DNA from: Planctomycetales bacterium
Lineage (GTDB): Bacteria > Planctomycetota > Planctomycetia > Pirellulales > Pirellulaceae
NCBI GenBank assembly: GCA_020426845.1
Contig: JAGQPF010000123.1
Location: 1 to 34,146, forward strand
Length of the DNA: 34,146 bases
Direction: 5' to 3'
Made by a program: the position numbers and the translations under genes. Shown in pieces: positions 2,906 through 24,307 of the stretch (the stretch's first letter is position 1; the number at the start of each line of letters is the position of its first letter). The notes under the pieces were generated by a model, which was not told the DNA's origin, ran no database searches, and worked only from the letters and a program-made list of their open reading frames with translations.

Positions 2906-3105
2906 GGTTGTTCCTTTGCTTTGATGGCTTCAGTTGATTTGTCGTTGGGATGTCACGGCTACGCGTGACCTTGCGGAGACTTTGAGTGGCTGGCGATTGA
3001 GTTGGACCGCCCCCGCCAACGCAAGTTTCCGAGTGACAGTTAATCGGCAGTTGTTCGACAGTTGTTCGATGGTTATCGGCGCTACTGGCGCTATCGACGA
3101 TATCG

Positions 3106-3621
3106 TTATTCACCGCCGGAGACGCCTTGCAGCATCTCGCCGCGGACCTTGAACGCCTGCTCAAACTCGCTGATGCGACGGAGGAGGTCCGAGACGACTG
3201 ACGCGGGAGTGTCGCCTTTGACCTCGAGTTGGCGAATGGAGCTGGCCAGCGCCTCGCACTGCTCCACCATGCGAAGGTCATGTTCGTAGACGCGATCCAG
3301 CAGCCCCGCGTCAACGCGGACATAGTCGAAGAATCCGCTGTAGCCACGCACTTGAGCGCGAATCAGTCCGATCAGTTTGTCGAGATTGACGCGGATGCGA
3401 TCGATTTCCGGCAGGGCGTCGAGATGCCCCGAGTTGAGCAGCCCTCGCGCGTATTCATCCAGCGAGGGTTTGGCGGCCTGCAGTTGATCGGCCATCGTCG
3501 TCCGCAATAGGTAGTCGGCCTCGCGGCGGTATTCCTTCTCCAGGTAGCCTCGAAAACCGGGTATCCACCTCAAAATGGACTCCACGAAATTCCGGGATTC
3601 CGCGTGTTGATGAGGCTCCAC
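3106..3621 (-). CDS. hypothetical protein (171 aa), GTG start
   Basis: The ORF has a strong AAGGAG RBS 5-6 nt upstream of the GTG at 3619-3621. It lies 200 bp upstream of the SPFH gene and is co-directional with it. I recognised no domain. Confidence 0.55.
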   Translation of the reverse strand: MEPHQHAESRNFVESILRWIPGFRGYLEKEYRREADYLLRTTMADQLQAAKPSLDEYARGLLNSGHLDALPEIDRIRVNLDKLIGLIRAQVRGYSGFFDYVRVDAGLLDRVYEHDLRMVEQCEALASSIRQLEVKGDTPASVVSDLLRRISEFEQAFKVRGEMLQGVSGGE

Positions 3622-3903
3622 AGCGACTCCTTGTGCGATTGTCGTGACGAGAACGAAAGTCAGAGAGAATTCGGCTCGGCCACGGATTTATTTGCGGGAA
3701 TCGGCCACGATCCGCAAGGCGAGGGGCCCGCGCGAGCTCGCCCCCGCGACCGAACGTCCTGGAACGGGCTGGCATCACGGCAGAAATCATAGCGAACATC
3801 GCCGATTTCGGCCACACAAACGCCACGGCGCGCCTTCTGTAGGGCTGGTGCGATTGAATTGAATGTCTACCGGCGAGAGCAACGCACCTCGGGCTCGCGC
3901 CCG

Positions 3904-3937
3904 AGGCTAACAACTGTCGCCCCTGCCGGGGCTGGAG
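3904..3937. repeat. Family-C REP-like element, single copy (GGCTAACaaCTGTCGCCCCTGCCGGGGC)
   Basis: It matches the GGCTA(A/C)CGTCTGTCGCCCCTnnnGGGGC core seen at 22170-23000, 26996-27318 and 27938-27975, and contains the hairpin gcccct-gcc-ggggc. Confidence 0.5.
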
Positions 3938-4106
3938 CGTTTGAATTGATCTCAAACCTGCCTTGCGGCGTCTGCGCCACTTCCCTACGATCCCGCACCG
4001 ATACGCGGCGCAGTCTGCGCACTCGGCCCTGACCGCGCTGAACTTGAACGAACTTCATGGGCGGGGTCGGCGTGTTTCGTGACGTGAGGATTGGGAGCTA
4101 ACGAAA

Positions 4107-5885
4107 ATGGCACGGAAGCGATGCGCCCCGTCAAACGGGCTTTGGGTCCTGGCGACGGCCACCCTCACTGCAATGGGCTGCACCAATCACTGGACGGCGC
4201 CGCGGCGAGTGCCTGTGGACCCGACCGCCGATGTGGACCTGCCCTCGGCCAACGCCGCGCCGCGCGAGTTCACCGCTCCCAACGACGTCCTGCGGATGCC
4301 CGCGACAGTCGGTCTGCCCCAGGCGCCCAAGATCGCCTACCCGGTGACTCCGGCCACGTCATTTCAGGAACAGCCTGGCGGTGTCGCGCCCGCTCAGTAT
4401 CAACAAGAGCCGTCACAGGTCGCCGTGGCGTCCATTAGTGACACCGGCAGTGAGCTGGGCACCGCCAACCACGTCCCGTTGCCACCCTTGTCGGCGCCTC
4501 CGGGCTCCGCCGAGGCGTTGGGACAAGCGTTCGGGCCGATGCAGCGGCTGCCGGAGTTGCCCGTCGCCGGAGAAATCTCCGGGGCGCCGCCCGCCTTGGA
4601 CAATGCGTTGTTCCCCGCCGGTGGGCCGACGATGGAGCCGCCGCCGTTTGACCCTGGTCGCATGCCCGAGATCGATCTGGACGTGCCGGAAATGGTGACG
4701 CCCGATGCGTTGCCCGATCCGCCCGCCGTGGATCCGGTGCCGGGCAGTGTCGAGTTCGGGCCTGGAGAACCAACACCGCTCAACGACACGGCCGACCCCC
4801 TGGACCCGCCGAATTCGCTGTTGCCGGCCGCAAGCGCGGCGCCGCTGCGAGCCAATTCGCCGCAACCACTTTCCGATGTCGAAGCGACGCCGATCCGAGC
4901 GCCGCAGTACGGCGGCTTTGAACCGCCCAACTTGGCGCTGCCCGCCGAGCCGGACGAGCCAGCAACCACGGCCGGTCGTCAGCCACTGCTGCCGGCGGGC
5001 GAGCCCGTGGAGCGGTCCTTGAGCGATGTGCCCGCCGAGAGCGCGGCGCCAGTCGAAGGCCCTCCGGCCATGGACGTCACCCCCATCGAGCTTCAAACGC
5101 CGCCGACCGTGTCGCCACCGGGCTCCGCCACGACGGAAACCAATGAGTTGGCACAACCCGTTGGGCCGTCTCCCGAGACCATGGCAAACTCCGGTGGCAC
5201 AACCGCATTGCCGGCGCCGGCCTCGGCCGCCCAGTCGCTCGTGCAGACGCTAAGCCTGTTACGCAAAGAGGCTGCCAGCGAGCAAGCCGATCCGCTGGAC
5301 GTCAAGCTGCTGCAGTTGCTGGAGGTCATCGCACATCCCGATGCACAGTGGCCCGAGAAGCTGCCGGCTGACCCGCGCTGGCGCGCCGTGGCCACGGCCG
5401 CTGCGCTCGAGTTGCGCGGGCAGCAGACCGACCGGCAGCGCGAGGTGCTGCAATCCGCGTTGGCGACGCTCGAGAGCGAGGCGCCGTTGAAGCTGCAAAA
5501 CCTGGCGTTCTGCCGACAGATCGACGACTTCGGCATCTACGCCGAGTTCAAGTCGCAGTTCCGCCCCGGCCAAGAGCTGTTGCTATACGTCGAAGTCGAG
5601 AACTTCGCGCACACCGAGACGCCCAACGGCTACTGCGTTGAAATCGAAGGCGGCTACGAGATCGTCGACGCCAACGGCCAAGTGGTTGAGAAACGCGAGT
5701 TCCTGGCCGACAAACAAACCTTCCGCCGCGAGCGTCGCGACTACTACATCCCGTATCGACTGTTCGTGCCCAAGACGATTCCGCCCGGCAAGTACACGCT
5801 GCGGCTGAACCTGACCGATGTGGCGTCGAAAACTTCGGGCGTCGGCTCGATCGAGTTGCCCGTGATCGCCGGTGAGCAGCCATGA
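4107..5885 (+). CDS. proline-rich probable lipoprotein with a C-terminal globular domain of unknown function
   Basis: The N-terminus MARKRCAPSNGLWVLATATLTAMGC is a signal peptide plus lipobox-like Cys. About 300 aa of Pro/Ala/Glu-rich low complexity follow. The C-terminal 180 aa are non-repetitive. The stop overlaps the next start (ATGA at 5882-5885). Confidence 0.75.
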   Translation: MARKRCAPSNGLWVLATATLTAMGCTNHWTAPRRVPVDPTADVDLPSANAAPREFTAPNDVLRMPATVGLPQAPKIAYPVTPATSFQEQPGGVAPAQYQQEPSQVAVASISDTGSELGTANHVPLPPLSAPPGSAEALGQAFGPMQRLPELPVAGEISGAPPALDNALFPAGGPTMEPPPFDPGRMPEIDLDVPEMVTPDALPDPPAVDPVPGSVEFGPGEPTPLNDTADPLDPPNSLLPAASAAPLRANSPQPLSDVEATPIRAPQYGGFEPPNLALPAEPDEPATTAGRQPLLPAGEPVERSLSDVPAESAAPVEGPPAMDVTPIELQTPPTVSPPGSATTETNELAQPVGPSPETMANSGGTTALPAPASAAQSLVQTLSLLRKEAASEQADPLDVKLLQLLEVIAHPDAQWPEKLPADPRWRAVATAAALELRGQQTDRQREVLQSALATLESEAPLKLQNLAFCRQIDDFGIYAEFKSQFRPGQELLLYVEVENFAHTETPNGYCVEIEGGYEIVDANGQVVEKREFLADKQTFRRERRDYYIPYRLFVPKTIPPGKYTLRLNLTDVASKTSGVGSIELPVIAGEQP

Positions 5886-7084: not shown

Positions 7085-7305
7085 TTGCGCGCAAACCCCA
7101 ATCATCACAGGCTGGCAGCCTGTGCCACGTTGTGCGCAAACCCCCAATCGTCACAGGCTGGCAGCCTGTGCCACGTTGCGCGCAAACCCCAATCGTCACA
7201 GGCTGGCAGCCTGTGCCACGTTGCGCGCAACCCCCAATCATCACAGGCTGGCAGCCTGTGCCACGTTGCGTGCAACCCAAATCATCACAGGCTGAGCGGC
7301 CGGCC
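7085..7305. repeat. Family-A tandem array: five copies of a 45-bp unit, each carrying the 17-bp perfect palindrome ACAGGCTGGCAGCCTGT
   Basis: Copies of cacaggctggcagcctgtgccacgttgcgcgcaaaccccaatcgt begin at about 7106, 7152, 7197, 7242 and 7286. The last copy is degenerate. Confidence 0.85.
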
Positions 7306-7431
7306 AATTTCGACACCTGTCGAACAGGGGTTCCTTGGCTCACCAAATGCGGGCCATTGAGGGATTTTGGGGAAGTTTGGTGAGATTCGGTGAGGCACTT
7401 TCAAGGCGGTTTACGTTGTACCTAACAGTCG

Positions 7432-7461
7432 TTGAAAACAGCCTCCCAATCCCCCTATAAT
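7432..7461 (+). promoter_or_regulatory. near-consensus sigma70-type promoter (TTGAAA, 18-bp spacer, TATAAT), about 240 nt upstream of the protease-domain gene
   Basis: The sequence is gtTGAAAacagcctcccaatcccccTATAATcc in an AT-richer intergenic stretch. The next gene starts at 7702. Confidence 0.45.
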
Positions 7462-7701
7462 CCATCCCCAGCATACACCATCTCCACCCATATGCCGGGG
7501 TAGGTGCGCCAAGATATAACATCCCATGTGTGAACCTCGGGTCACATCCACGACGTGGATAATTCACAAACTTAATTAGCTCGATGGCCGGCCTGTCACG
7601 GCCTTCCAGCGTGTTGCCTGCTGCGGTGTCGGATCCGGAGAGGAGTCCCGCCAAACTCTTCGGATTCACCGCAAACAACACTCCGTTCAAGGGGCCTAGC
7701 T

Positions 7702-10494
7702 TTGAGTCAAATCGTTCTCGAGTGCCCGCACTGTAAGACCATTTTGTCCGGGCAGTCCATTCCCGCCGCCGGGACCAAACTGGACTGCCCCCAGTGCGAA
7801 CGCCCGTTTGTTGCGGAGCCGGTTCCGCTCGCGCAACTTCAAGCCCAGCGACAAGCCCAGCAGCAACAACGATTGCTTGCCGAACAGCAGCAACGATTGC
7901 TCGCCGAGCAGCAGCGTCAGCTAGCGATGCAAGAGGCGCAGCTGCGAGCACGCGCACAGGCCGAGGCGCAGCGGTCCGACCCGCTCAACCAGCCCACGCC
8001 ATCAACCTCGAGGCCGCGCACGCTCAAGGCACTCAACAAGCGCTCGCAGCCTCACATCCACCCAGCCGCGCTGATGGGGCTCGGCGCCGGCGCGGTCCTC
8101 GCCATTGCGCTGATGGTGATGATGTTCAGCGGCGGCGGAGACGAGTCGCCAAACGACGATTCCGAAACGCCGGCGAGCGGGTTGATCGCCCAGAACTCAA
8201 GCTCGGGACGATCCCCCGGCGACATCGCACAAGAGTTGCCCGTCAACTCCACGGAAGGCGGGTTTAGCGGTGGCAGCACGTTCGGCGGCGGCGGGCGTTT
8301 TGGCAGCGGTTCACCCGCCGCGTCACAACCGACCGCCTCCTCCAGCGGAAGCGAGCTTGCCTCGTCCGATTCTCCGTCGGTGAACGATTCTTCCACATCC
8401 GAGCCCGCCAACACGAGCTCGTCGCCCTCGCGCGGTGTCAGTCAATTCGCGCAATTGCCTGCATTGAAGATGGTGCCCGACACGCTGTATGGATGGCGGC
8501 CCGCACGCGAGTACATCTATCGCGTCACACTCTCCAAGAACGCCGACGGCAAAACCGAATCGCTGTCGGGCCGGATGATGTACAAGGTCAACGCCGAGGC
8601 GAGTCAGCCGATGGCGGGCACGGCCACGGGCACCGCGTTTGTCGTTCACAGCGATGGCATTTTGGTCACTTGCGCGCATGTGGTGGACTCCGCGTCCACC
8701 GTGCACGTGACGGTCGGCAACGAACGGTACCCCGCCGATGTGATCGGGTTCGACGACGAGCATGACTTGGCCGTGCTGCGCGTGCAGGCAACCGGGATGC
8801 CGTCGCTGCCGCTGGCCGACTCGGAACAAGTGCAGCTCGCCGAGGCGATTCGCGTGATCGGCTATCCGATCTCGGATATTCTCGGCACCAGCGTCAAAGT
8901 GACTCAGGGCTCAATCGCGGGCGTGGTGGACCAAGAAGTGAAGCTGTTGCAGGTGGACGCGACGGTGAATCCCGGCAATAGCGGCGGGCCGATGCTGAAC
9001 GATCGTGGCGAAGTGCTGGGAGTCGTGACTTCGGGCCTGTTTGGCAGCGACCTGGCGGAAGTGGGATTCTGCATGCCCGCCAATGACGTCCGCAACTTGT
9101 TGAAGAAAACCGGCGTGCCGTTCAAGACCGGCGGCTCCGCGGCCGCGATGGACGGCCCCGCGCTGGCCAAGGTCGCCGTGCCGAGCGTCGCCTTTGTCGA
9201 GGTGACACTTGGTGGAGGCGGAAGCGACGCGACGACCAAGCTGCTCACTTATGAAGGCGCGTTAAGCGGAGGAGTCATTCTCGGCGCGCTCGCTGCCAGC
9301 CCCTATGGCGAGGTGCTCAACGAAGAGCTGGAGTCGGAGAGCGACGAGGTCGGACTGTTCTCGGGCGACTTGGCCGGCGGTTTGTTCCAGAAAATCCCTC
9401 GCCCCGGCGTAAGCAGTTGGGAGGCCAATCGCGTCACCACCGCGATGGTCCGCAACGGAGAGAACACTCGAGAGGTTCCGGTCATGGAGCAGTCCGTCTC
9501 CGCGGTGAAGCAAGACGACAGCCAGGTGCTGGTCATCGAACGAAAGTACAGCGTCATGGCCATGGCGGACGGATCGATGGTGGAGCAACTCCCCAACGGC
9601 ACCGCGACCTGGGAGTTTGACAAAGCACAAAAGGTGCCACGCCTGGCGTCCGTCCAACTGCGTCGCCAGCGCGGCGGCCAAACCGAGTCCATCACGATCC
9701 GATACGAATTGGAGCCGCAGGGCACATCGTGGGCCACAACGCTCGAAGGCCGCACGATTATGGCGGTGAAAAGCGGCATCGCCAGAGAGGCGTTCGGTGG
9801 CGGCGCCACGCCTAGCTCGCCTAGCTCGCCGAGAACGCCGGCGCCAAGCTATGTCACCTTTACGGGTCTCGAGCCGAGCCAGAAGGTCGACTTGGCGGTC
9901 GTCACGCTCAAGGATGTCTCCAAACAATACAACCACGCCACTTGCTTGCGGGAGCTCGCGACGCTGGAGGTGATCCCCGAGCGCAAGGACGAGGTTTCCG
10001 AGGCGATCGAGGCGGCATTCCGCTACCGCCCCAACGCCCCCTACTGCATTCAGGCGTGTGTGGTGTGGGGAACCAAGCGGAACGTCGACTCGCTCCTCAC
10101 CCAGTTGGTCACGCTCAACGGCGTCACCTACGCTCGTGACGTGATCGCCGCGCTGAGAACCTGCGGGCCAACCCCCGACTCGGTCATGACCGTGATTGCG
10201 TTCTGTGGAGGCCTGTCCACTTCCAGGTCGATCTTGCTGAACGACGTGAAGCTCGAGGGGGTCAAGTTCCTCGCCGCGGCCCCGGAGTTGTCGGAGGAAG
10301 TCGCGTTGAGGCTGCTGAAGCATCCCAAGGATGAGTTGCGGATAGCCGCCTGCCAAGTCCTTGGCGCCGTCGGCAGTAAAGAAGCGCTGGTGCCGCTACG
10401 CACCGCCACCGCCAGCAACCGGGCCAACACCGCCTTGGTAAAAGCCGCCGCCAAAGAGGCTGCCAAAACGATTCAGTTCCGCATCGGCAGCTAA
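7702..10494 (+). CDS. multidomain protein: N-terminal MJ0042-type zinc ribbon, Gln-rich coiled coil, TM helix, S1C (HtrA-like) trypsin-family serine protease domain, C-terminal HEAT/PBS-lyase repeats
   Basis: The N-terminus has CPHC…CPQC, followed by the QQQRLLAEQQ repeat and the TM helix LMGLGAGAVLAIALMVMMF. The catalytic triad context is VTCAHVV, DLAVLRV and GNSGGPML. The C-terminal repeats read LRLLKHPKDELRIAACQVLGAVG. It is probably a TTG start with AAGGGG 8 nt upstream. Confidence 0.85.
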   Translation: MSQIVLECPHCKTILSGQSIPAAGTKLDCPQCERPFVAEPVPLAQLQAQRQAQQQQRLLAEQQQRLLAEQQRQLAMQEAQLRARAQAEAQRSDPLNQPTPSTSRPRTLKALNKRSQPHIHPAALMGLGAGAVLAIALMVMMFSGGGDESPNDDSETPASGLIAQNSSSGRSPGDIAQELPVNSTEGGFSGGSTFGGGGRFGSGSPAASQPTASSSGSELASSDSPSVNDSSTSEPANTSSSPSRGVSQFAQLPALKMVPDTLYGWRPAREYIYRVTLSKNADGKTESLSGRMMYKVNAEASQPMAGTATGTAFVVHSDGILVTCAHVVDSASTVHVTVGNERYPADVIGFDDEHDLAVLRVQATGMPSLPLADSEQVQLAEAIRVIGYPISDILGTSVKVTQGSIAGVVDQEVKLLQVDATVNPGNSGGPMLNDRGEVLGVVTSGLFGSDLAEVGFCMPANDVRNLLKKTGVPFKTGGSAAAMDGPALAKVAVPSVAFVEVTLGGGGSDATTKLLTYEGALSGGVILGALAASPYGEVLNEELESESDEVGLFSGDLAGGLFQKIPRPGVSSWEANRVTTAMVRNGENTREVPVMEQSVSAVKQDDSQVLVIERKYSVMAMADGSMVEQLPNGTATWEFDKAQKVPRLASVQLRRQRGGQTESITIRYELEPQGTSWATTLEGRTIMAVKSGIAREAFGGGATPSSPSSPRTPAPSYVTFTGLEPSQKVDLAVVTLKDVSKQYNHATCLRELATLEVIPERKDEVSEAIEAAFRYRPNAPYCIQACVVWGTKRNVDSLLTQLVTLNGVTYARDVIAALRTCGPTPDSVMTVIAFCGGLSTSRSILLNDVKLEGVKFLAAAPELSEEVALRLLKHPKDELRIAACQVLGAVGSKEALVPLRTATASNRANTALVKAAAKEAAKTIQFRIGS

Positions 10495-18922: not shown

Positions 18923-19090
18923 GTGAGTATTATCCGCGTTGGATCGAACGAAAAATATGCCGAAGGTTGGGACAAGGCATTCGGCGGAGCTTCGTCCACA
19001 GGCAAAAAGAAGAAGGCGACCGAGAAGAAGTCAGCCGCGGCGTCCGGCGCGAAAAAGGCCAAGAAGAAAAAGAAAAAGAAGAAGGCGTAA
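18923..19090 (+). CDS. small basic protein (55 aa) with a poly-Lys tail, absent from the ORF track because of its size
   Basis: A GAGGAAGAG RBS lies 7 nt before the GTG. The product is MSIIRVGSNEKYAEGWDKAFGGASSTGKKKKATEKKSAAASGAKKAKKKKKKKKA. Its codon usage is better than the overlapping listed ORF 18904..19128, which uses ata/agg/cga codons. Confidence 0.55.
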   Translation: MSIIRVGSNEKYAEGWDKAFGGASSTGKKKKATEKKSAAASGAKKAKKKKKKKKA

Positions 19091-19126: not shown

Positions 19127-19155
19127 GAGCCCGGCCGTGGGGAACGACCGGGCTC
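19127..19155 (+). terminator. GC-rich hairpin terminator candidate after the small-protein gene
   Basis: The hairpin gagcccggcc-gtggggaac-gaccgggctc sits 37 nt after the TAA. There is no U-tract. Confidence 0.35.
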
Positions 19156-19397
19156 GCGACGTGCAATGCATCCCCTCCAATCAGGCAGACTAGCGAGCGG
19201 GCCGATGCTCGATGCCGTTTCGGAAGGGACGGGGGTGAGGATTTCCGCGGCTGTCAAACCGCACCTATAGGATCGACCTGCGCGCAGAGAATAAGCAAGA
19301 TTTCCGCACCCCACGCCAAACCTTGCACACTCGTCAAAACCTCGCCCGCGCGCCCGGCTTGATCAATCCATACAGTTTCACACCGGGACTCGGGTCC

Positions 19398-21614
19398 ATG
19401 ATCCTCGCGCGCTGGCTGTCCTTGGCTCTCCTTCTTGCCTTCGTCGCCGAGTGTGGCGCCGAAGTGGGGCAGAAGATCGACGACTTTGAACTGCGGGACT
19501 TTCGGGGCAAGACGTGGTCGTTGCGAGAGTCGGGCGACCGCACCATCGTGCTGGCGTTTCTCGGCACCGAATGCCCGCTGGTGCAGTTCTACGCCAAACG
19601 GCTCGAAGAATTGCAAGCCGAGTACGCGGAGCGAGGCGTCGTGGTGGTTGGCATCGACTCCAACCTGCAGGACTCGTTGGCCGAGCTGGCGTCGTTCGCG
19701 CGCCGCCACGATCTCACCTACCCGCTGCTCAAGGACCCCGGCAACCGCGTGGCCGATCAGTTGGGCGCCGAGCGCACGCCCGAAGTGTTTCTGCTCGATC
19801 GTCAACGACACGTTCGCTATCGCGGGCGAATCGACGATCAGTACACCTACGGCATCGCTCGCACCAAGCCCACTCAGCGTTATCTGCGCGACGCGATCGA
19901 AGCCTTGCTCGGCAACCGCCCGGTGGCCTTGGCGGAAACCGAGACCGTGGGCTGTCACATCGGTCGTGTGCTGACGCCGCAAACCGACAGTGACGTCACC
20001 TACTCGAATCAGATCGCCCGCATCTTTCAGCAGCGGTGCGTCGAATGCCACCGCCCCGGCGAGATCGCTCCGTTCCCGCTGACCACTTACGAGGAGACTT
20101 TGGGCTGGGCCGAGATGATCGACGAGGTCACCTCCGAGCGACGCATGCCGCCATGGCACGCCGAGCCGGGTCATCAACAATATGCCAACGACGCCCACTT
20201 GAGCGACGAGGAGCTCCGGACCATTCGAAAATGGGTCGCCGCCGGCGCTCCCGAAGGCGATCCCAAGGAGCTGCCTCAGCCAGTTCAATTCACCGAAGGC
20301 TGGCGAATCGGCGAGCCCGATCGCATCGTTTGGATGTCGGAGAAGTCGTTTTCCGTGCCGGCCGAGGGAGAGGTCAAGTACCAATACTTCACGGTCGACC
20401 CGAAGTTCGAAACCGACATGTGGGTGCAGGCGGCGGAATGCCGACCGGGCAATCGAGCGGTCGTGCATCACATTATCGTCGGCATCAAATCCCCGAATGA
20501 GGATCAAGACGGCGTGCACGGCGTTCGCTCGGAATGGCTCGCTGCCACCGCGCCGGGCGCCCAGCCGATGATTTTGCCATCAGGACAAGCGAAGCTCATT
20601 CCTGCCCGATCGAAGCTCGTCTTTCAAATGCACTACACGCCCAACGGCACCAAGCAGACCGATCGCAGTTCCATCGGCTTGCGTTTCATCGAGGCGTCAG
20701 CGGTGAAACATCGCGTGGCCACCCACAAGGCGATCAACACCCGATTCCGCATTCCCCCGCACGCGGCAAATCACAAGGAAACCACTCGGCCGTACACTTT
20801 CGGCTCCGCCGGCTACTTGGTGTCGATGTTTCCCCACATGCATCTACGCGGCAAGTCGTTCACTTATGTGGCCCACTTCCCCGATGGACGCCCCGATCAA
20901 ACTCTGCTGCATGTGCCGCGCTATGACTTCAATTGGCAGAACGGCTACCTGTTGAAAGAGCCGATGCTGATGCCCAAAGGGACTCAGATCGTCTGTGACG
21001 CGGTCTTCGACAACTCGGAGGACAACCTGGCCAATCCCGATCCCAAACAGACCGTGAGCTGGGGAGACCAGACCGACGAGGAGATGATGATCGGCTACTT
21101 CGACATCTACGACGCGGAAGACGCCAGCCGCACCCAAGAGTTCATCGGCCGACTCGACCAACTCCAGCGGAAGTCGCTCGCCGACGCAGCTCGCGGTTCG
21201 TTGCATGCCGAGCGACAATTCACGCGCTTTGCCCAACAGCTTCGACTGGCCATGCCACAGGTCGATCGCGTCGATTGGACCGTCCATGAACAGCGCAAGT
21301 TGAAGGTGCTGCTGGTGGCCCAAGACGCCTCCACCAGGCGAACGCTGCTCGGGCAATTGGTCACCAGCGACGCCGAGATGGCGTTGCCGACCGTGGCAAG
21401 CCAAACCGAGCCGGTGGTGCACGCGAACCTTGCCAGCGTTCCCGGCAAGGACTTTGCGCACATGCGCAGACTGATGGCCTCCAGCGCGCATTTCCCGATC
21501 GAGTTGGATGGCAAGCGTGGCGTGATCAGCTTCTGGAGCACGGAGCGCAACGCGTTTCCCGATTCGGCGGTGAAGCTGCTGCAAGAGCTGGCTCCGATCA
21601 TGGCGACTCCGTGA
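19398..21614 (+). CDS. secreted redox fusion protein: thioredoxin-fold (redoxin/AhpC-TSA-like, single Cys) + c-type cytochrome (CxxCH) + copper type-II ascorbate-dependent monooxygenase-like (PHM/DBH-like) domain + C-terminal extension
   Basis: The signal peptide is MILARWLSLALLLAFVAEC. Redox motifs include FLGTECPLV and the heme site CVECH. The His/Met ligand pattern is VVHHIIVG … QMHYTPNG … FPHMHLRG … DEEMMIGYF, with spacings like the PHM CuH/CuM sites. The stop overlaps the mug start (GTGA). Confidence 0.8.
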   Translation: MILARWLSLALLLAFVAECGAEVGQKIDDFELRDFRGKTWSLRESGDRTIVLAFLGTECPLVQFYAKRLEELQAEYAERGVVVVGIDSNLQDSLAELASFARRHDLTYPLLKDPGNRVADQLGAERTPEVFLLDRQRHVRYRGRIDDQYTYGIARTKPTQRYLRDAIEALLGNRPVALAETETVGCHIGRVLTPQTDSDVTYSNQIARIFQQRCVECHRPGEIAPFPLTTYEETLGWAEMIDEVTSERRMPPWHAEPGHQQYANDAHLSDEELRTIRKWVAAGAPEGDPKELPQPVQFTEGWRIGEPDRIVWMSEKSFSVPAEGEVKYQYFTVDPKFETDMWVQAAECRPGNRAVVHHIIVGIKSPNEDQDGVHGVRSEWLAATAPGAQPMILPSGQAKLIPARSKLVFQMHYTPNGTKQTDRSSIGLRFIEASAVKHRVATHKAINTRFRIPPHAANHKETTRPYTFGSAGYLVSMFPHMHLRGKSFTYVAHFPDGRPDQTLLHVPRYDFNWQNGYLLKEPMLMPKGTQIVCDAVFDNSEDNLANPDPKQTVSWGDQTDEEMMIGYFDIYDAEDASRTQEFIGRLDQLQRKSLADAARGSLHAERQFTRFAQQLRLAMPQVDRVDWTVHEQRKLKVLLVAQDASTRRTLLGQLVTSDAEMALPTVASQTEPVVHANLASVPGKDFAHMRRLMASSAHFPIELDGKRGVISFWSTERNAFPDSAVKLLQELAPIMATP

Positions 21615-22228
21615 GAGCCGTCGCGTCACGCCGGCCGACTCGCGCCGAACTCGAAGCGGCTCGGGACAAGCTGGTTCCCGACGTGATTGCGGACGATCTC
21701 GAGTTGCTGTTTGTCGGCATCAACCCCAGCTTGTATTCCGCCGCGCTCGGTCAACACTTCGCCCGCCCCGGCAATCGATTCTGGCCCGCGTTGCACGGAG
21801 CCGGCTTCACACCGCGACTCTGGTCGCCCCCCGAGCAAGCGAATCTGGTGGAGCAGGGCATCGGGATCACGAACGTGGTTGCACGAGCCACCGCGCGAGC
21901 CGATGAGCTATCCCGCGACGAACTTGTGCAAGGCATGCAGCGTCTGACGGCGCTGGCAGAACAACATCGAATCGTGCACATCGCGTTTCTGGGCATCACG
22001 GCATATCGCACCGGGTGCGACCGCCAACAGGCCGTCATCGGGCCGCAGGCAGAGCGTATCGGCAACGCCGCCGTCAGTGTGCTGCCCAATCCCAGCGGGC
22101 TCAACGCCCATTATCAGCTGGCCGATCATATCGCGTTGCTCAAGGCGCTTCGACAGCGGATCCGAGGCTCGAGGGCGCGAGCCTGTGGAGTCGCATGCAC
22201 AGGCCCCGCCAAGGGCGACAGACGGTAG
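21611..22228 (+). CDS. mug: G/U mismatch-specific uracil-DNA glycosylase (Mug/TDG, UDG family 2)
   Basis: LLFVGINPSLYSAALGQHFARPGNRFW matches the Mug active-site region (GINPG…PANRFW), and NPSGLN lies near the C-terminus. It is a GTG start. The last approximately 12 codons run into the repeat array, so the stop is uncertain. Confidence 0.75.
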   Translation: MRAVASRRPTRAELEAARDKLVPDVIADDLELLFVGINPSLYSAALGQHFARPGNRFWPALHGAGFTPRLWSPPEQANLVEQGIGITNVVARATARADELSRDELVQGMQRLTALAEQHRIVHIAFLGITAYRTGCDRQQAVIGPQAERIGNAAVSVLPNPSGLNAHYQLADHIALLKALRQRIRGSRARACGVACTGPAKGDRR

Positions 22229-22690
22229 CCCCAGGCGCAAGCCGGCGCAAGCCCGTGGAGTGGCGCGGGCCGCGCGCAAAAAGCCCCGGAGGGCCGGAGG
22301 GGCGACAGACGGTAGCCGTGGGCGCAAGCCGGCGCAAGCCCAGGGAATGAGGCGCGGGCCGCGCGCAAAAAGCCCCGGAGGGGCGACAGACGGTAGCCTT
22401 GGGCGCAAGCCCAAGGAATGAGGCGCGGGCCGCGCGCAAAAAGCCCAGGAGGGGCGACAGACGTTTGCCCTGGGCGCGAGCCGGCGCAAGCCCAGGGAAT
22501 GAGGCCCGGGCCGCGCGCAAAAAGCCCCGGAGGGGCGACAGACGGTAGCCTTGGGCGCAAGCCCAAGGAATGAGGCGCGGGCCGCGCGCAAAAAGCCCCG
22601 GAGGGGCGACAGACGGTAGCCCTGGGCGTAAGCCGGCGTAAGCCCAGGGAATGAGGCGCGCAAGCCGCGCAGCGCCGGCGGCTCGCGCGG
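22170..22690. repeat. Family-C tandem array, orientation 1: about 6 copies of a 66-78-bp unit (GCGCGGGCCGCGCGCAAAAAGCCCCGGAGGGGCGACAGACGGTAGCCnnGGGCGCAAGCC[GGCGCAAGCC]CAGGGAATGAG)
   Basis: The repetition is visible in the sequence. Each unit holds two palindromes (gcgcgg-g-ccgcgc; gcccc-gga-ggggc) flanked by an A5 run, which reads as a hairpin + U5 on the minus strand. Peptides repeat in the shadow ORFs on both strands. Confidence 0.9.
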
Positions 22691-22735
22691 TTCAATGAAC
22701 ACGTCGCCCCGCAAGGCAGAGCCAACTCGCACAAC

Positions 22736-23000
22736 TCCACGGGCTTGCGCCCGTGGCTACCTTCTGTCGCCCCTTGCGGGGCTGGTGCGCGTGGTGTGCG
22801 CGACTCCACGGGCTTGCGCCCGTGGCTACCTTCTGTCGCCCCTTGCGGGGCTGGTGCGCGTGGCGTGCGCGACTCCACGGGCTTGCGCCCGTGGCTACCT
22901 TCTGTCGCCCCTTGCGGGGCCTGGTGCGCGTGGTGTGCGCGACTCCACGGGCTTACGCCCGTGGCTACCTTCTGTCGCCCCTTGCGGGGCCGGTGCGCAT
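22736..23000. repeat. Family-C tandem array, inverted orientation: 4 copies of a 69-bp unit (CACGGGCTTGCGCCCGTGGCTACCTTCTGTCGCCCCTTGCGGGGCTGGTGCGCGTGGTGTGCGCGACTC)
   Basis: The units are roughly the reverse complement of those in 22170-22690 and lie about 45 bp from them. This creates an approximately 800-bp quasi-palindromic region between mug and the propeller gene. Confidence 0.9.
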
Positions 23001-23083: not shown

Positions 23084-24307
23084 ATGTCGCGACGCGCACT
23101 CTTTGCCACCTCACTTGCCCTGCTGGCGTCCGGTCTCCTTCATTCCTCACACGTCAGTGGCGAGCAGCCGTGGACGCAGTGGCGTGGCCCGCATGGCGAC
23201 GGGCACTCGGACGCCCCGGCGCTGCTTCGTTGGAATGACGAGAACGTGACCTGGAAGACGGCATTGCCGGGGCTCGGCCAATCGTCGCCGGTCGTTTGGG
23301 GCGACCGTATCTTCTTGACCGGCGCCGAGAACGATGGCGCCAAGCGGATCGTGTTCTGCGTCTCGCGGAAAAACGGCAAACTGCTCTGGCAGCAGACCGC
23401 CTGGACGGGCGACGCGGAGAAGACGCACCAGATGAATCGTTGGGCGTCCGCGACGTGCGCCACCGACGGCGAGCGGGTCGTGGCCTTCTTTGGCCGCGGC
23501 GGGCTGCACTGTTATTCGATGGACGGCACGCGGCTCTGGTCGCGCGAGCTGGGCGATTTTGAAAACGTCTGGGGCACTGCCGCGTCGCCGATCATCGCGG
23601 GCGAGCTCGTGATTCAAAATTGTGACGCCGAGGACAGCGGGTCATGCCTGGTCGCCCTGAACAAGGAGACGGGGGCCGAGGTGTGGCGCACGGCCCGCGA
23701 GCAACTGCGTGGCTGGTCAACGCCGGTCGTGGTGGCCAACGGTGACAAGCAAGAGCTGGTGCTCAACGGCGAGACCGGAGTGTTTGGCTACGACTTGGCC
23801 AGCGGCGCCCAACTCTGGTTCAGCAAGGGCGACACCGGCCGCGGCACCCCCACCGTGACGCCGACGGGCGACGGGCTGCTGGTCGTCGTCAACGGACGGC
23901 CTGGCGACATGTTCGCCGTGCAAGCGGACGGCAAGGAAGTCTGGCGGACCAAGCGCAAAGGCGGCCGCGACTTGCCCTCGCCGATCGTGCTCGACGGCCA
24001 GGTGATCGTCGTCAGCTTGCGCCCCGGCACCGCGACCAGCTACATCGCCTCCAGTGGCAAGGAGACCGCTCGGCTGCGGCTGGACGGCAGCTTCTCCGCG
24101 TCGCCGATCGCCGTCTCGGGACACGCGATCATCCCCAACGAAGATGGCTTGGTCTATGTGCTCAAGGCCGGCGACCAGGGCGTGGAGGTGGTTTCGAAGA
24201 ACAAGATCACCTTGCGAGCGGAAAACGAGATCTTCCGCGCTTGCGTGACGCCGCTGGAGGACGGACTGCTGCTGCGGTCCGACCAGACGCTGTACCTGAT
24301 CCAGTAA
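23084..24307 (+). CDS. secreted PQQ-like beta-propeller repeat protein (BamB-like fold)
   Basis: The signal peptide is MSRRALFATSLALLASGLL. Repeated …DG.(L/V)W… blades (GKLLWQQT, GTRLWSREL, GAEVWRT, GAQLWFS, GKEVWRT) are present. The listed 520-aa ORF is over-extended through the repeat array. Confidence 0.8.
   Translation: MSRRALFATSLALLASGLLHSSHVSGEQPWTQWRGPHGDGHSDAPALLRWNDENVTWKTALPGLGQSSPVVWGDRIFLTGAENDGAKRIVFCVSRKNGKLLWQQTAWTGDAEKTHQMNRWASATCATDGERVVAFFGRGGLHCYSMDGTRLWSRELGDFENVWGTAASPIIAGELVIQNCDAEDSGSCLVALNKETGAEVWRTAREQLRGWSTPVVVANGDKQELVLNGETGVFGYDLASGAQLWFSKGDTGRGTPTVTPTGDGLLVVVNGRPGDMFAVQADGKEVWRTKRKGGRDLPSPIVLDGQVIVVSLRPGTATSYIASSGKETARLRLDGSFSASPIAVSGHAIIPNEDGLVYVLKAGDQGVEVVSKNKITLRAENEIFRACVTPLEDGLLLRSDQTLYLIQ

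Follow-up and report, generated by a model that had tools for sequence, protein, structure and literature searches.

The locus described here raises the question of whether a planctomycete gene labelled as a redoxin encodes a copper monooxygenase of the kind represented by peptidylglycine alpha-hydroxylating monooxygenase (PHM), dopamine beta-hydroxylase (DBH) and TBM, the two-uncoupled-copper enzymes that are treated as eukaryotic and ascorbate-dependent. In animals, enzymes of this kind produce amidated hormones and noradrenaline. In one tabulation of cuproproteins, PHM and DBM appear solely among the eukaryotic entries (PMC7435645), and a second source likewise places them with eukaryotes (PMC8812541). 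The DNA analysed is contig JAGQPF010000123.1 of a Planctomycetales bacterium (Pirellulaceae; assembly GCA_020426845.1), a stretch of 34,146 nucleotides (nt) with a GC content of about 0.62, hereafter called the window. The gene in question lies on its forward strand and ends at position 21614. We consider that its product is probably a periplasmic copper monooxygenase of the PHM/DBH type, with two uncoupled copper sites and an electron-input module of its own. The fold, the identity and conservation of the ligands, and a haem module upstream of the copper core in virtually every relative are direct observations.

The longest open reading frame (ORF) of the gene spans 19323..21614 (+) and opens with TTG. 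Read from the ATG at 19398, it gives 738 amino acids (aa) plus stop, a product 100 % identical to an NCBI protein (P0001) labelled 'MAG: redoxin domain-containing protein [Planctomycetales bacterium]' (MAG, metagenome-assembled genome). An initial annotation, made from the sequence alone, had placed the ORF at exactly 19398-21614; the ORF is real, and the length of 739 aa then given had counted the stop codon as a residue. The AlphaFold2 (AF2) model of the full protein has a pLDDT (predicted local distance difference test) of 83.8. In order, the protein comprises a signal peptide, a single-Cys thioredoxin fold, a mono-haem cytochrome c, a copper core of two subdomains, a helical linker and a GAF-like domain. 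Searched as a whole, it matches the Pfam profiles AhpC-TSA (E 2e-20, residues 23-141), Redoxin (E 4e-14), Cytochrome_CBB3 (E 4.6e-4, 20.9 bits against a cut-off of 27, residues 205-256), Haem_bd (E 4.9e-3), Cu2_monoox_C (E 0.004, 17.0 bits against 23, residues 473-573) and GAF_2 (E 4e-6, 27.5 bits against 28.6, residues 665-736). NCBIfam returned ResA, DsbE and Prx matches only, far under their cut-offs (49.6 against 170). The whole gene and the features of its haem and copper parts are the following.

19398..21614 (+), whole ORF, 738 aa and stop: redoxin, cytochrome c, PHM/DBH-like copper domain and GAF-like domain, predicted to be exported (ORF list, identity in NCBI nr, AF2 model)
19398..19460 (+), probable Sec signal peptide, residues 1-21, MILARWLSLALLLAFVAECGA, cleavage before EV (read from sequence; the N-termini of orthologues are also hydrophobic)
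19989..20252 (+), mono-haem cytochrome c domain, residues 198-285 (Cytochrome_CBB3 and Haem_bd matches)
20037-20051 (+), haem motif C214-V-E-C-H218 (motif, alignment)
20145-20147 (+), Met250, probable distal haem ligand, in R-M-P-P-W (alignment)
20283..20693 (+), N-terminal jelly-roll, CuH subdomain, residues 296-432
20466-20471 (+), H357-H358 (CuH)
20625-20627 (+), Q410
20631-20633 (+), H412 (CuH)
20703..21122 (+), C-terminal jelly-roll, CuM subdomain, residues 436-575 (Cu2_monoox_C over 473-573, 17 bits; hhalign)
20835-20843 (+), H480-M-H482 (CuM)
21009-21044 (+), motif DNSxxNxxNPDP, residues 538-549, CuM subdomain
21084-21086 (+), M563 (CuM)
21096-21098 (+), Y567

A Foldseek comparison of the full AF2 model with known structures retrieved human DBH (4zel; E 1e-12) together with about thirty PHM entries (E 1e-11 to 1e-8), the alignments covering 270-340 columns. 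We then took the sequence of the rat PHM core from the PDB and aligned it by hhalign to bacterial profiles of 17 and 109 sequences. With the 109-sequence profile the match reached 95.6 % probability (E 4.6e-9, 263 columns) and every copper ligand fell on its PHM counterpart: H357/H358 on H107/H108, H412 on H172, H480/H482 on H242/H244 and M563 on M314, with Q410 on Q170 and Y567 on Y318. The shallow 17-sequence profile gave only 16 % probability, with the same register in three of the four motifs (H412 on H172, H480/H482 on H242/H244, M563 on M314). PHM, the catalytic core of PAM (PDB 1PHM, 1SDW), and the window protein thus align one to one at the six copper ligands, Q170, E313-M314 and Y318, although they share only 14-16 % identity. 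The initial annotation had recognised the HH…H…HxH…M pattern, which is indeed present; it gave spacings of about 52/71/78 residues, the real ones being 54/68/81, against 64/70/70 in rat PHM. Its proposal of a PHM/DBH-like two-copper domain is upheld by the DBH match and by the one-to-one register of the ligands, a resemblance that chance does not come near to explaining.

The ligands hardly vary. C59, C186, C214, C217, H218, M250, H357, H358, H412, H480, H482 and M563 are invariant in an alignment of 52 sequences. Among 139 domain matches from the top 150 representatives, mutually at most 50 % identical, the six ligands are kept in 133-139: H357, H358 and H412 in 136-138, H480 in 139, H482 in 139 and M563 in 133, the six gaps at the last position being truncated sequences. 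That M563 is the ligand follows from the free variation of the adjacent M564. A double jelly-roll with a CuH and a CuM site is among the defining traits of the copper type II ascorbate-dependent monooxygenases (PHM/DBH/TBM; PF01082 and PF03712, clan CL0612), and all three elements are found here. The motif DNSxxNxxNPDP, for which PHM has no equivalent, is invariant or nearly so across the bacterial family and may form a metal site, perhaps for Ca, or a substrate loop.

Upstream of the copper core, the AF2 model is helical over residues 202-281. By sequence and model this small domain, with its CxxCH and distal Met, is a class I c-type cytochrome; the CxxCH module had been noted initially, and the alignment confirms both C214-V-E-C-H218 and M250. 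C214, C217 and H218 are kept in 104 of 104 relatives, and M250 in 109 of 110 as against 51 of 110 for H254, which points to His/Met ligation of the haem. Cytochrome_CBB3 matches 24 of 64 relatives (best E 3.6e-8) and Haem_bd 20. Because covalent attachment of haem requires export, the protein is expected to leave the cytoplasm. Of 109 representatives whose copper domain is preceded by 100 residues or more, 107 have a CxxCH no further than 130 aa before it. This near-obligatory fusion lends good support to the initial proposal that haem replaces ascorbate as the reductant, and dependence on ascorbate is unlikely because a cytochrome c is fused. The epithet 'self-sufficient' given to the protein is not supported, since electrons must still reach a single-haem domain from an external donor.

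The arrangement differs from those of the animal enzymes. Compared with PHM, the window protein is bacterial, predicted to be periplasmic, fused to a cytochrome c and presumably not ascorbate-dependent, and it carries the extra DNSxxNxxNPDP loop. Compared with DBH-like monooxygenases (4ZEL), its accessory domain is a c-type cytochrome with CxxCH and not a DOMON domain, and it lacks a dimerisation domain. Copper enzymes that draw electrons from a cytochrome are known, namely the cytochrome c-fused copper nitrite reductases and the lytic polysaccharide monooxygenases (LPMOs), which receive electrons from the cytochrome domain of cellobiose dehydrogenase. The principle is shared, in that a haem carrying one electron at a time, either tethered to the copper site or docking on it, stands in for a small-molecule reductant; their copper folds and chemistry are unrelated to the PHM-like core.

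To delimit the family, we searched 1.84 billion representative proteins with a profile of the copper domain, which returned 12,687 clusters at E <= 1e-3 and 8,030 at E <= 1e-10. More than 100 full-length relatives share 52-57 % identity with the window protein, nearly all from Planctomycetota, and the family is found in Planctomycetota and Bacteroidota. Databases name these relatives 'redoxin domain-containing protein', 'peroxiredoxin' or 'mono/diheme cytochrome c family protein'. Two sets of loci were assembled. The planctomycete set holds the 80 best genome loci, all from Planctomycetota and including the cultured Kolteria novifilia Pan216 and Anatilimnocola sp. NA78. The metagenome set comes from a scan seeded with short forms of the protein and holds 80 further loci with 92 family genes. 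A redoxin domain is present in 43 of 64 representatives and is fused in 20 of the 92 metagenome genes, being otherwise absent. The C-terminal ends of the 64 representatives comprise EF-hands (16), AMPK1_CBM/CBM48 (4), pullulanase X25 (3) and GAF (3) domains, and one of the 64 carries a 3-keto-disaccharide hydrolase domain. Ten long family members bear SGNH hydrolase, alpha/beta hydrolase, PQQ_2 propeller or GAF domains as extra domains. With the redoxin and C-terminal domains optional and the haem-copper pair constant, it is the cytochrome c together with the two-copper core that forms the conserved functional module.

Other arrangements were also encountered. Six proteins of 1,250 aa (P0002-P0007) contain the entire redoxin-cytochrome-copper unit in tandem duplicate and have a transmembrane helix at their end, and one metagenome contig (L150, 1964-7185) holds three family paralogues in a row; together these suggest diversification of substrates. 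On a plasmid of Chondrinema litorale (Bacteroidota; L085, NZ_CP111057), a separate redoxin gene (7237-7899) and a cytochrome c–PHM-like gene (7908-9290) are 9 nt apart. This redoxin has a single Cys (DCP), the G-C motif and a His-rich C-terminal tail, HKEHHSQKEKHDSHQHHNK, and a gene for a 654-aa cytochrome c peroxidase lies nearby (3023-4987, minus strand). No separate redoxin gene was found beside the short haem-copper forms of the metagenome set, two apparent cases being tandem paralogues, and the ORFs flanking P0186 are unrelated. In Nonomuraea gerenzanensis (Actinomycetota; L086, 7605-8933 (+)), a PHM-like lipoprotein with full ligands (VHH, QVHY, HMH, SDEMC) is without CxxCH, so that haem-less bacterial versions also exist; this stretch is unannotated in the gene table of PLSDB, a table that is incomplete.

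The N-terminal domain, which gives the protein its database name, has these features.

19461..19967 (+), atypical thioredoxin-fold 'redoxin' domain, residues 22-190 (Pfam AhpC-TSA and Redoxin; PDB 3u5r, 2cvb, 2ywi)
19572-19574 (+), Cys59, sole active-site Cys, in the motif GTECP (G56-T57-E58-C59-P60; sequence, alignment)
19953-19955 (+), invariant Cys186 in the motif GCHIG, the G-C-x-I that closes the domain (alignment)

The redoxin fold with a single active-site Cys had been correctly described, and a second invariant Cys, C186, had been overlooked. Among diverse relatives, C59-P60 is kept in 80 of 85 and G185-C186 in 85 of 89. A CxxC active site is found in 0 of 85, the position -3 to C59 being G, S or A in all, and with NCBIfam scores so far below cut-off the domain does not belong to the TlpA/ResA/DsbE group. 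Nor is the label 'peroxiredoxin-like' supported: the fold and the Pfam match are those of peroxiredoxins, but the PxxxTxxC motif is replaced by A-F-L-G-T-E-C, in which position -7 is not Pro and the Thr stands at -2, no more than 60 of 87 relatives retain R126, and the nearest structures are uncharacterised thioredoxin-like proteins. These are SMc02350 (3U5R), the TTHA0593-type proteins (2CVB/2YWO) and 2YWI, the best matches both by sequence (E 7e-19 to 2e-12) and by structure (Foldseek TM about 0.8). The group formed by 3U5R, 2CVB and 2YWI shares with the redoxin domain C-P-x-V, R-T-P-E and the terminal G-C-x-I; 3U5R likewise has no first Cys (SNRC), while 2CVB and 2YWI carry a full CxxC. All are stand-alone single-domain proteins of unknown function, unlike the fused domain here. 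The thiol leg of the electron chain postulated in the initial annotation finds no support, the domain being optional and never bearing CxxC. The redoxin domain would rather be accessory, possibly in peroxide scavenging or protection; such a protective role is plausible because PHM and DBH assays need catalase.

The C-terminal region had been described as 170 uncharacterised residues; it amounts to about 160 and divides into a linker of three helices and a domain that is GAF-like by profile.

21123..21257 (+), helical linker, residues 576-620 (AF2 helices 578-584, 591-598 and 605-618)
21258..21611 (+), GAF-like alpha/beta domain, residues 621-738 (GAF_2 profile; weak PDB profile match to Ta0848)

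Searched as an isolated segment, this domain scores 30.9 bits with GAF_2, above the cut-off of 28.6 that it misses within the full protein (27.5), and GAF_2 matches 12 of 16 orthologues (best E 2.1e-8). It is probably accessory and may serve in ligand binding or oligomerisation.

The genes beside the relatives offer some clues to the electron donor and to the substrate. Among the 80 metagenome loci, a PQQ-dependent dehydrogenase (PF01011, E 2.6e-59) occurs in 9 and TonB-dependent-receptor-like proteins in 11, often together. Four dehydrogenase genes (PF01011) directly adjoin short haem-copper genes on the same strand and are possible electron donors to the haem.

L155, 3634-5400 (+), PQQ-dependent dehydrogenase
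L152, 1952-3766 (+), PQQ-dependent dehydrogenase
L156, 2-898 (+), PQQ-dependent dehydrogenase
L141, 4035-5933 (+), PQQ-dependent dehydrogenase

A six-bladed NHL propeller is encoded in 6 of the 80 metagenome loci, and several propellers beside PHM-like genes resemble PAL, so that the PHM-PAL pair is mirrored by neighbouring genes in several relatives.

L095, 7246-8280 (+), PAL-like six-bladed NHL propeller gene
L124, 2174-3304, PAL-like six-bladed NHL propeller gene
L126, 3348-4466, PAL-like six-bladed NHL propeller gene
L152, 2-1228, PAL-like six-bladed NHL propeller gene
L120, 2-517, PAL-like six-bladed NHL propeller gene

These propellers match rat PAL (3fvz) at E of about 1e-22 to 1e-25 over one continuous stretch and not in scattered blades. 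PAL residues H585, Y654, H690, R706 and H786, which we take to be its zinc ligands and catalytic residues, are matched identically in L095, L124, L126 and L152, and in L120 where sequence is present; in the generic NHL neighbour of L134 they are not matched. By a rough estimate, which is not a computed statistic, about 0.4 chance adjacencies of a PAL-like gene would be expected in 80 loci. In L095, an alpha/beta hydrolase, a PQQ_2 propeller, a redoxin-cytochrome c-PHM-like gene and the PAL-like gene follow one another on one strand with short gaps, the last two 112 bp apart. The L095 PHM-like protein and the window protein share 44 % identity over 564 aa and the same architecture, the locus is flanked by PSD1/DUF1501/PSCyt genes, which indicates a planctomycete-type genome, and counterparts of its hydrolase and propeller are fused to the family members P0151 and P0174. 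PAL-like proteins occur in the same phyla as the PHM-like family (Pirellulaceae, Gemmataceae, Verrucomicrobia). NCBI has already named the PAL-like lyase, without a known partner, and NCBIfam has no model for it, nor for the copper domain. None of the ten long family members is a PHM-like/PAL-like fusion.

From these partners, the most specific guess that can be made about the substrate is hydroxylation of the carbon next to an amide nitrogen, as in PHM; we put it forward tentatively. With similar reserve, Planctomycetes and their relatives may hold an equivalent of PAM, the two-step enzyme that amidates peptides in animals, divided between two proteins: a PHM-like hydroxylase driven by cytochrome c and a zinc PAL-like lyase encoded on its own. 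In the periplasm, the pair would act on glycine-extended peptides or N-acylglycines by alpha-hydroxylation and N-dealkylation, with the respiratory chain and not ascorbate as the source of power. For the monooxygenase itself we envisage the following course. After Sec export and attachment of the haem (His218/Met250), the haem would take single electrons from a periplasmic donor, either a soluble cytochrome or a quinoprotein dehydrogenase such as those encoded beside some relatives. It would hand them to CuH, in place of the ascorbate of the animal enzymes; O2 would then bind to reduced CuM and a C-H bond of the substrate would be hydroxylated.

Other functions can be considered for a protein of this composition. 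The protein might handle peroxide, its peroxiredoxin-like Cys reacting with H2O2 or organic peroxides and being recycled by haem and copper, or its copper site might work as a peroxygenase, a use of H2O2 as co-substrate that has been proposed for LPMOs. AhpC-TSA is the strongest Pfam match, sources call the family 'peroxiredoxin', 10 of the 80 planctomycete loci have a gene of the di-haem cytochrome c peroxidase type upstream, and the split redoxin and cytochrome c-copper pair of Chondrinema has a 'cytochrome c peroxidase' nearby. We nevertheless find a peroxide enzyme rather unlikely: the PxxxTxxC motif is wanting, at least a third of the family lacks the redoxin domain, the haem-copper pair being constant, and a peroxidase would not need the full PHM ligand set. 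The reading implied by the database names, a ResA/TlpA-type thiol-disulfide oxidoreductase for maturation of cytochrome c or copper proteins, with the rest of the chain as a passenger, draws on weak NCBIfam matches to ResA and DsbE and on PDB matches to ResA. It is hardly credible, given scores far under the cut-offs and no CxxC in any member examined, and it would leave the conserved haem-copper module unexplained.

A protein that binds copper without catalysis, for storage, buffering, redox relay or sensing, with GAF or EF-hand ends reporting a signal, would account for the variable, regulatory-looking C-termini (GAF_2; EF-hands in 16 of 64) and for the retention of only Y318 among the substrate-binding residues of PHM. 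This seems to us quite improbable, as purifying selection acts strongly on both copper sites and on Q170 and Y318 in more than 12,000 clusters, no output domain is present, and members fused to or adjoining hydrolases and PAL-like lyases fit a catalytic pathway. An oxidase of polysaccharides or glycans, analogous to an LPMO with its cytochrome donor and using a jelly-roll as in PNGase F and carbohydrate-binding modules, has a similarly small chance, if not a slightly smaller one. By fold, PNGase F ranks next behind PHM and DBH, AMPK1_CBM/CBM48, pullulanase X25 and 3-keto-disaccharide hydrolase domains do occur in the family, and sulfatases are frequent neighbours in Planctomycetes. Such carbohydrate modules are rare, though, and absent from the window protein, the ligands are of the PHM type and do not form a histidine brace, and sulfatases abound throughout planctomycete genomes.

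Several observations weigh against the PHM/DBH-type monooxygenase that we favour. The curated Pfam cut-offs are not passed, PF03712 scoring 17.0 bits against 23 and PF01082 not matching. A sequence-profile search of the PDB with the central domain alone gave no match even at E 10, and with the full-length profile thioredoxin-fold matches only. PHM R240, which together with N316 we take, from the published PHM-substrate structure, to hold the glycine carboxylate and backbone, is replaced by F478 (M/F/L/T/S/A in the family) and N316 by I565; Y318 persists as Y567 (Y, F or W across the family). The binding of copper and of haem is predicted from motifs, and the clustering of the ligands and the haem-to-CuH distance from homology. 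No conserved neighbour surrounds the orthologues, nothing recurring in more than 11 of the 80 planctomycete loci, and no PAL-like gene was found in these loci or in the window. Conversely, most PAL-like genes do not adjoin a PHM-like gene, and none of the three that were looked up (in Novipirellula, in one Gemmataceae MAG and in one further MAG) does so.

Relatives do reach Pfam, 18 of 64 matching Cu2_monoox_C (best E 3.3e-7) and the L095 relative scoring 29.1 bits, over the 23-bit cut-off. The refuting condition set in the initial annotation, the lack of a significant copper-monooxygenase profile match, is formally borderline for the window protein itself, Cu2_monoox_C scoring below its cut-off and PF01082 giving nothing, but it is overridden by the family profile alignment, the fold and the ligands. 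Of the anchors of PHM proper (R240, N316, Y318), Y318 alone is kept. With both copper sites present but R240 and N316 replaced, the core is of PHM/DBH type and not that of a PHM orthologue. It is a divergent branch of the PHM/DBH superfamily and not a member of the curated families; since the protein fails the curated Pfam thresholds and lacks the substrate anchors of PHM, we class it as a cytochrome c-fused bacterial branch.

The neighbours of the gene in the window are housekeeping genes: guaA, ymdB, holA, a methyltransferase gene and a gene of the UDG family. The last, of the UDG superfamily and mismatch glycosylase-like, lies at 21611-22228 (+), and its GTG start overlaps the TGA stop of the target gene (GTGA, 21611-21614). 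This overlap suggests that the two are co-transcribed; no functional link between them is evident. On the upstream side, a 55-codon ORF at 18923-19090 (+) encodes a lysine-rich peptide, VSIIRVGSNEKYAEGWDKAFGG...KKAKKKKKKKKA, and a GC-rich hairpin near 19127-19156 stands between this ORF and the target gene, just upstream of the latter. Downstream, a PQQ_2-type propeller gene (23090-24307, plus strand) follows the target by 1.5 kb. Its product shares 32 % identity (E 2e-60) with that of the ORF immediately preceding the L095 PHM-like gene and 28 % (E 4e-9) with the propeller fused at the C-terminus of P0174. An enrichment of PQQ_2 propellers near orthologues was considered as evidence and rejected, since 7 of 81 planctomycete loci is about what chance gives for so abundant a family. 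Between the UDG-family and propeller genes, two opposed tandem arrays (22200-22660 and 22734-22998) repeat a GC-rich unit of about 70 nt with the core AGGGGCGACAGACGGTAGCC...GGGCGCAAGCC, in about six copies one way and four the other; their GC content is 0.71 and their arms are 75-91 % complementary. In the 80 planctomycete loci the most frequent neighbours are sulfatases, ABC ATPases and EF-P.

The full-text literature that we searched, whose coverage is incomplete, yielded no paper on bacterial enzymes of this kind and no description of a fusion of cytochrome c with a PHM/DBH-like domain, so that earlier notice elsewhere is possible. A 2026 paper on bacterial C-terminal amidation deals with alpha-ketoglutarate/iron and MNIO enzymes only and cites PAM for comparison (PMC12912966). 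Our analysis describes a bacterial branch of more than 12,000 clusters that keeps the complete two-copper site, is nearly always fused to a cytochrome c, and has been labelled merely 'redoxin' or 'peroxiredoxin'. If our reading is right, this branch would show how PHM/DBH chemistry runs without ascorbate. It would also provide spectroscopy with a natural system that has a built-in, triggerable one-electron donor, in which the long-debated transfer of electrons from CuH to CuM could be followed. For bacteria themselves, it would offer a candidate partner for the orphan proteins of the PAL family, and possibly a third route to C-terminal amides.

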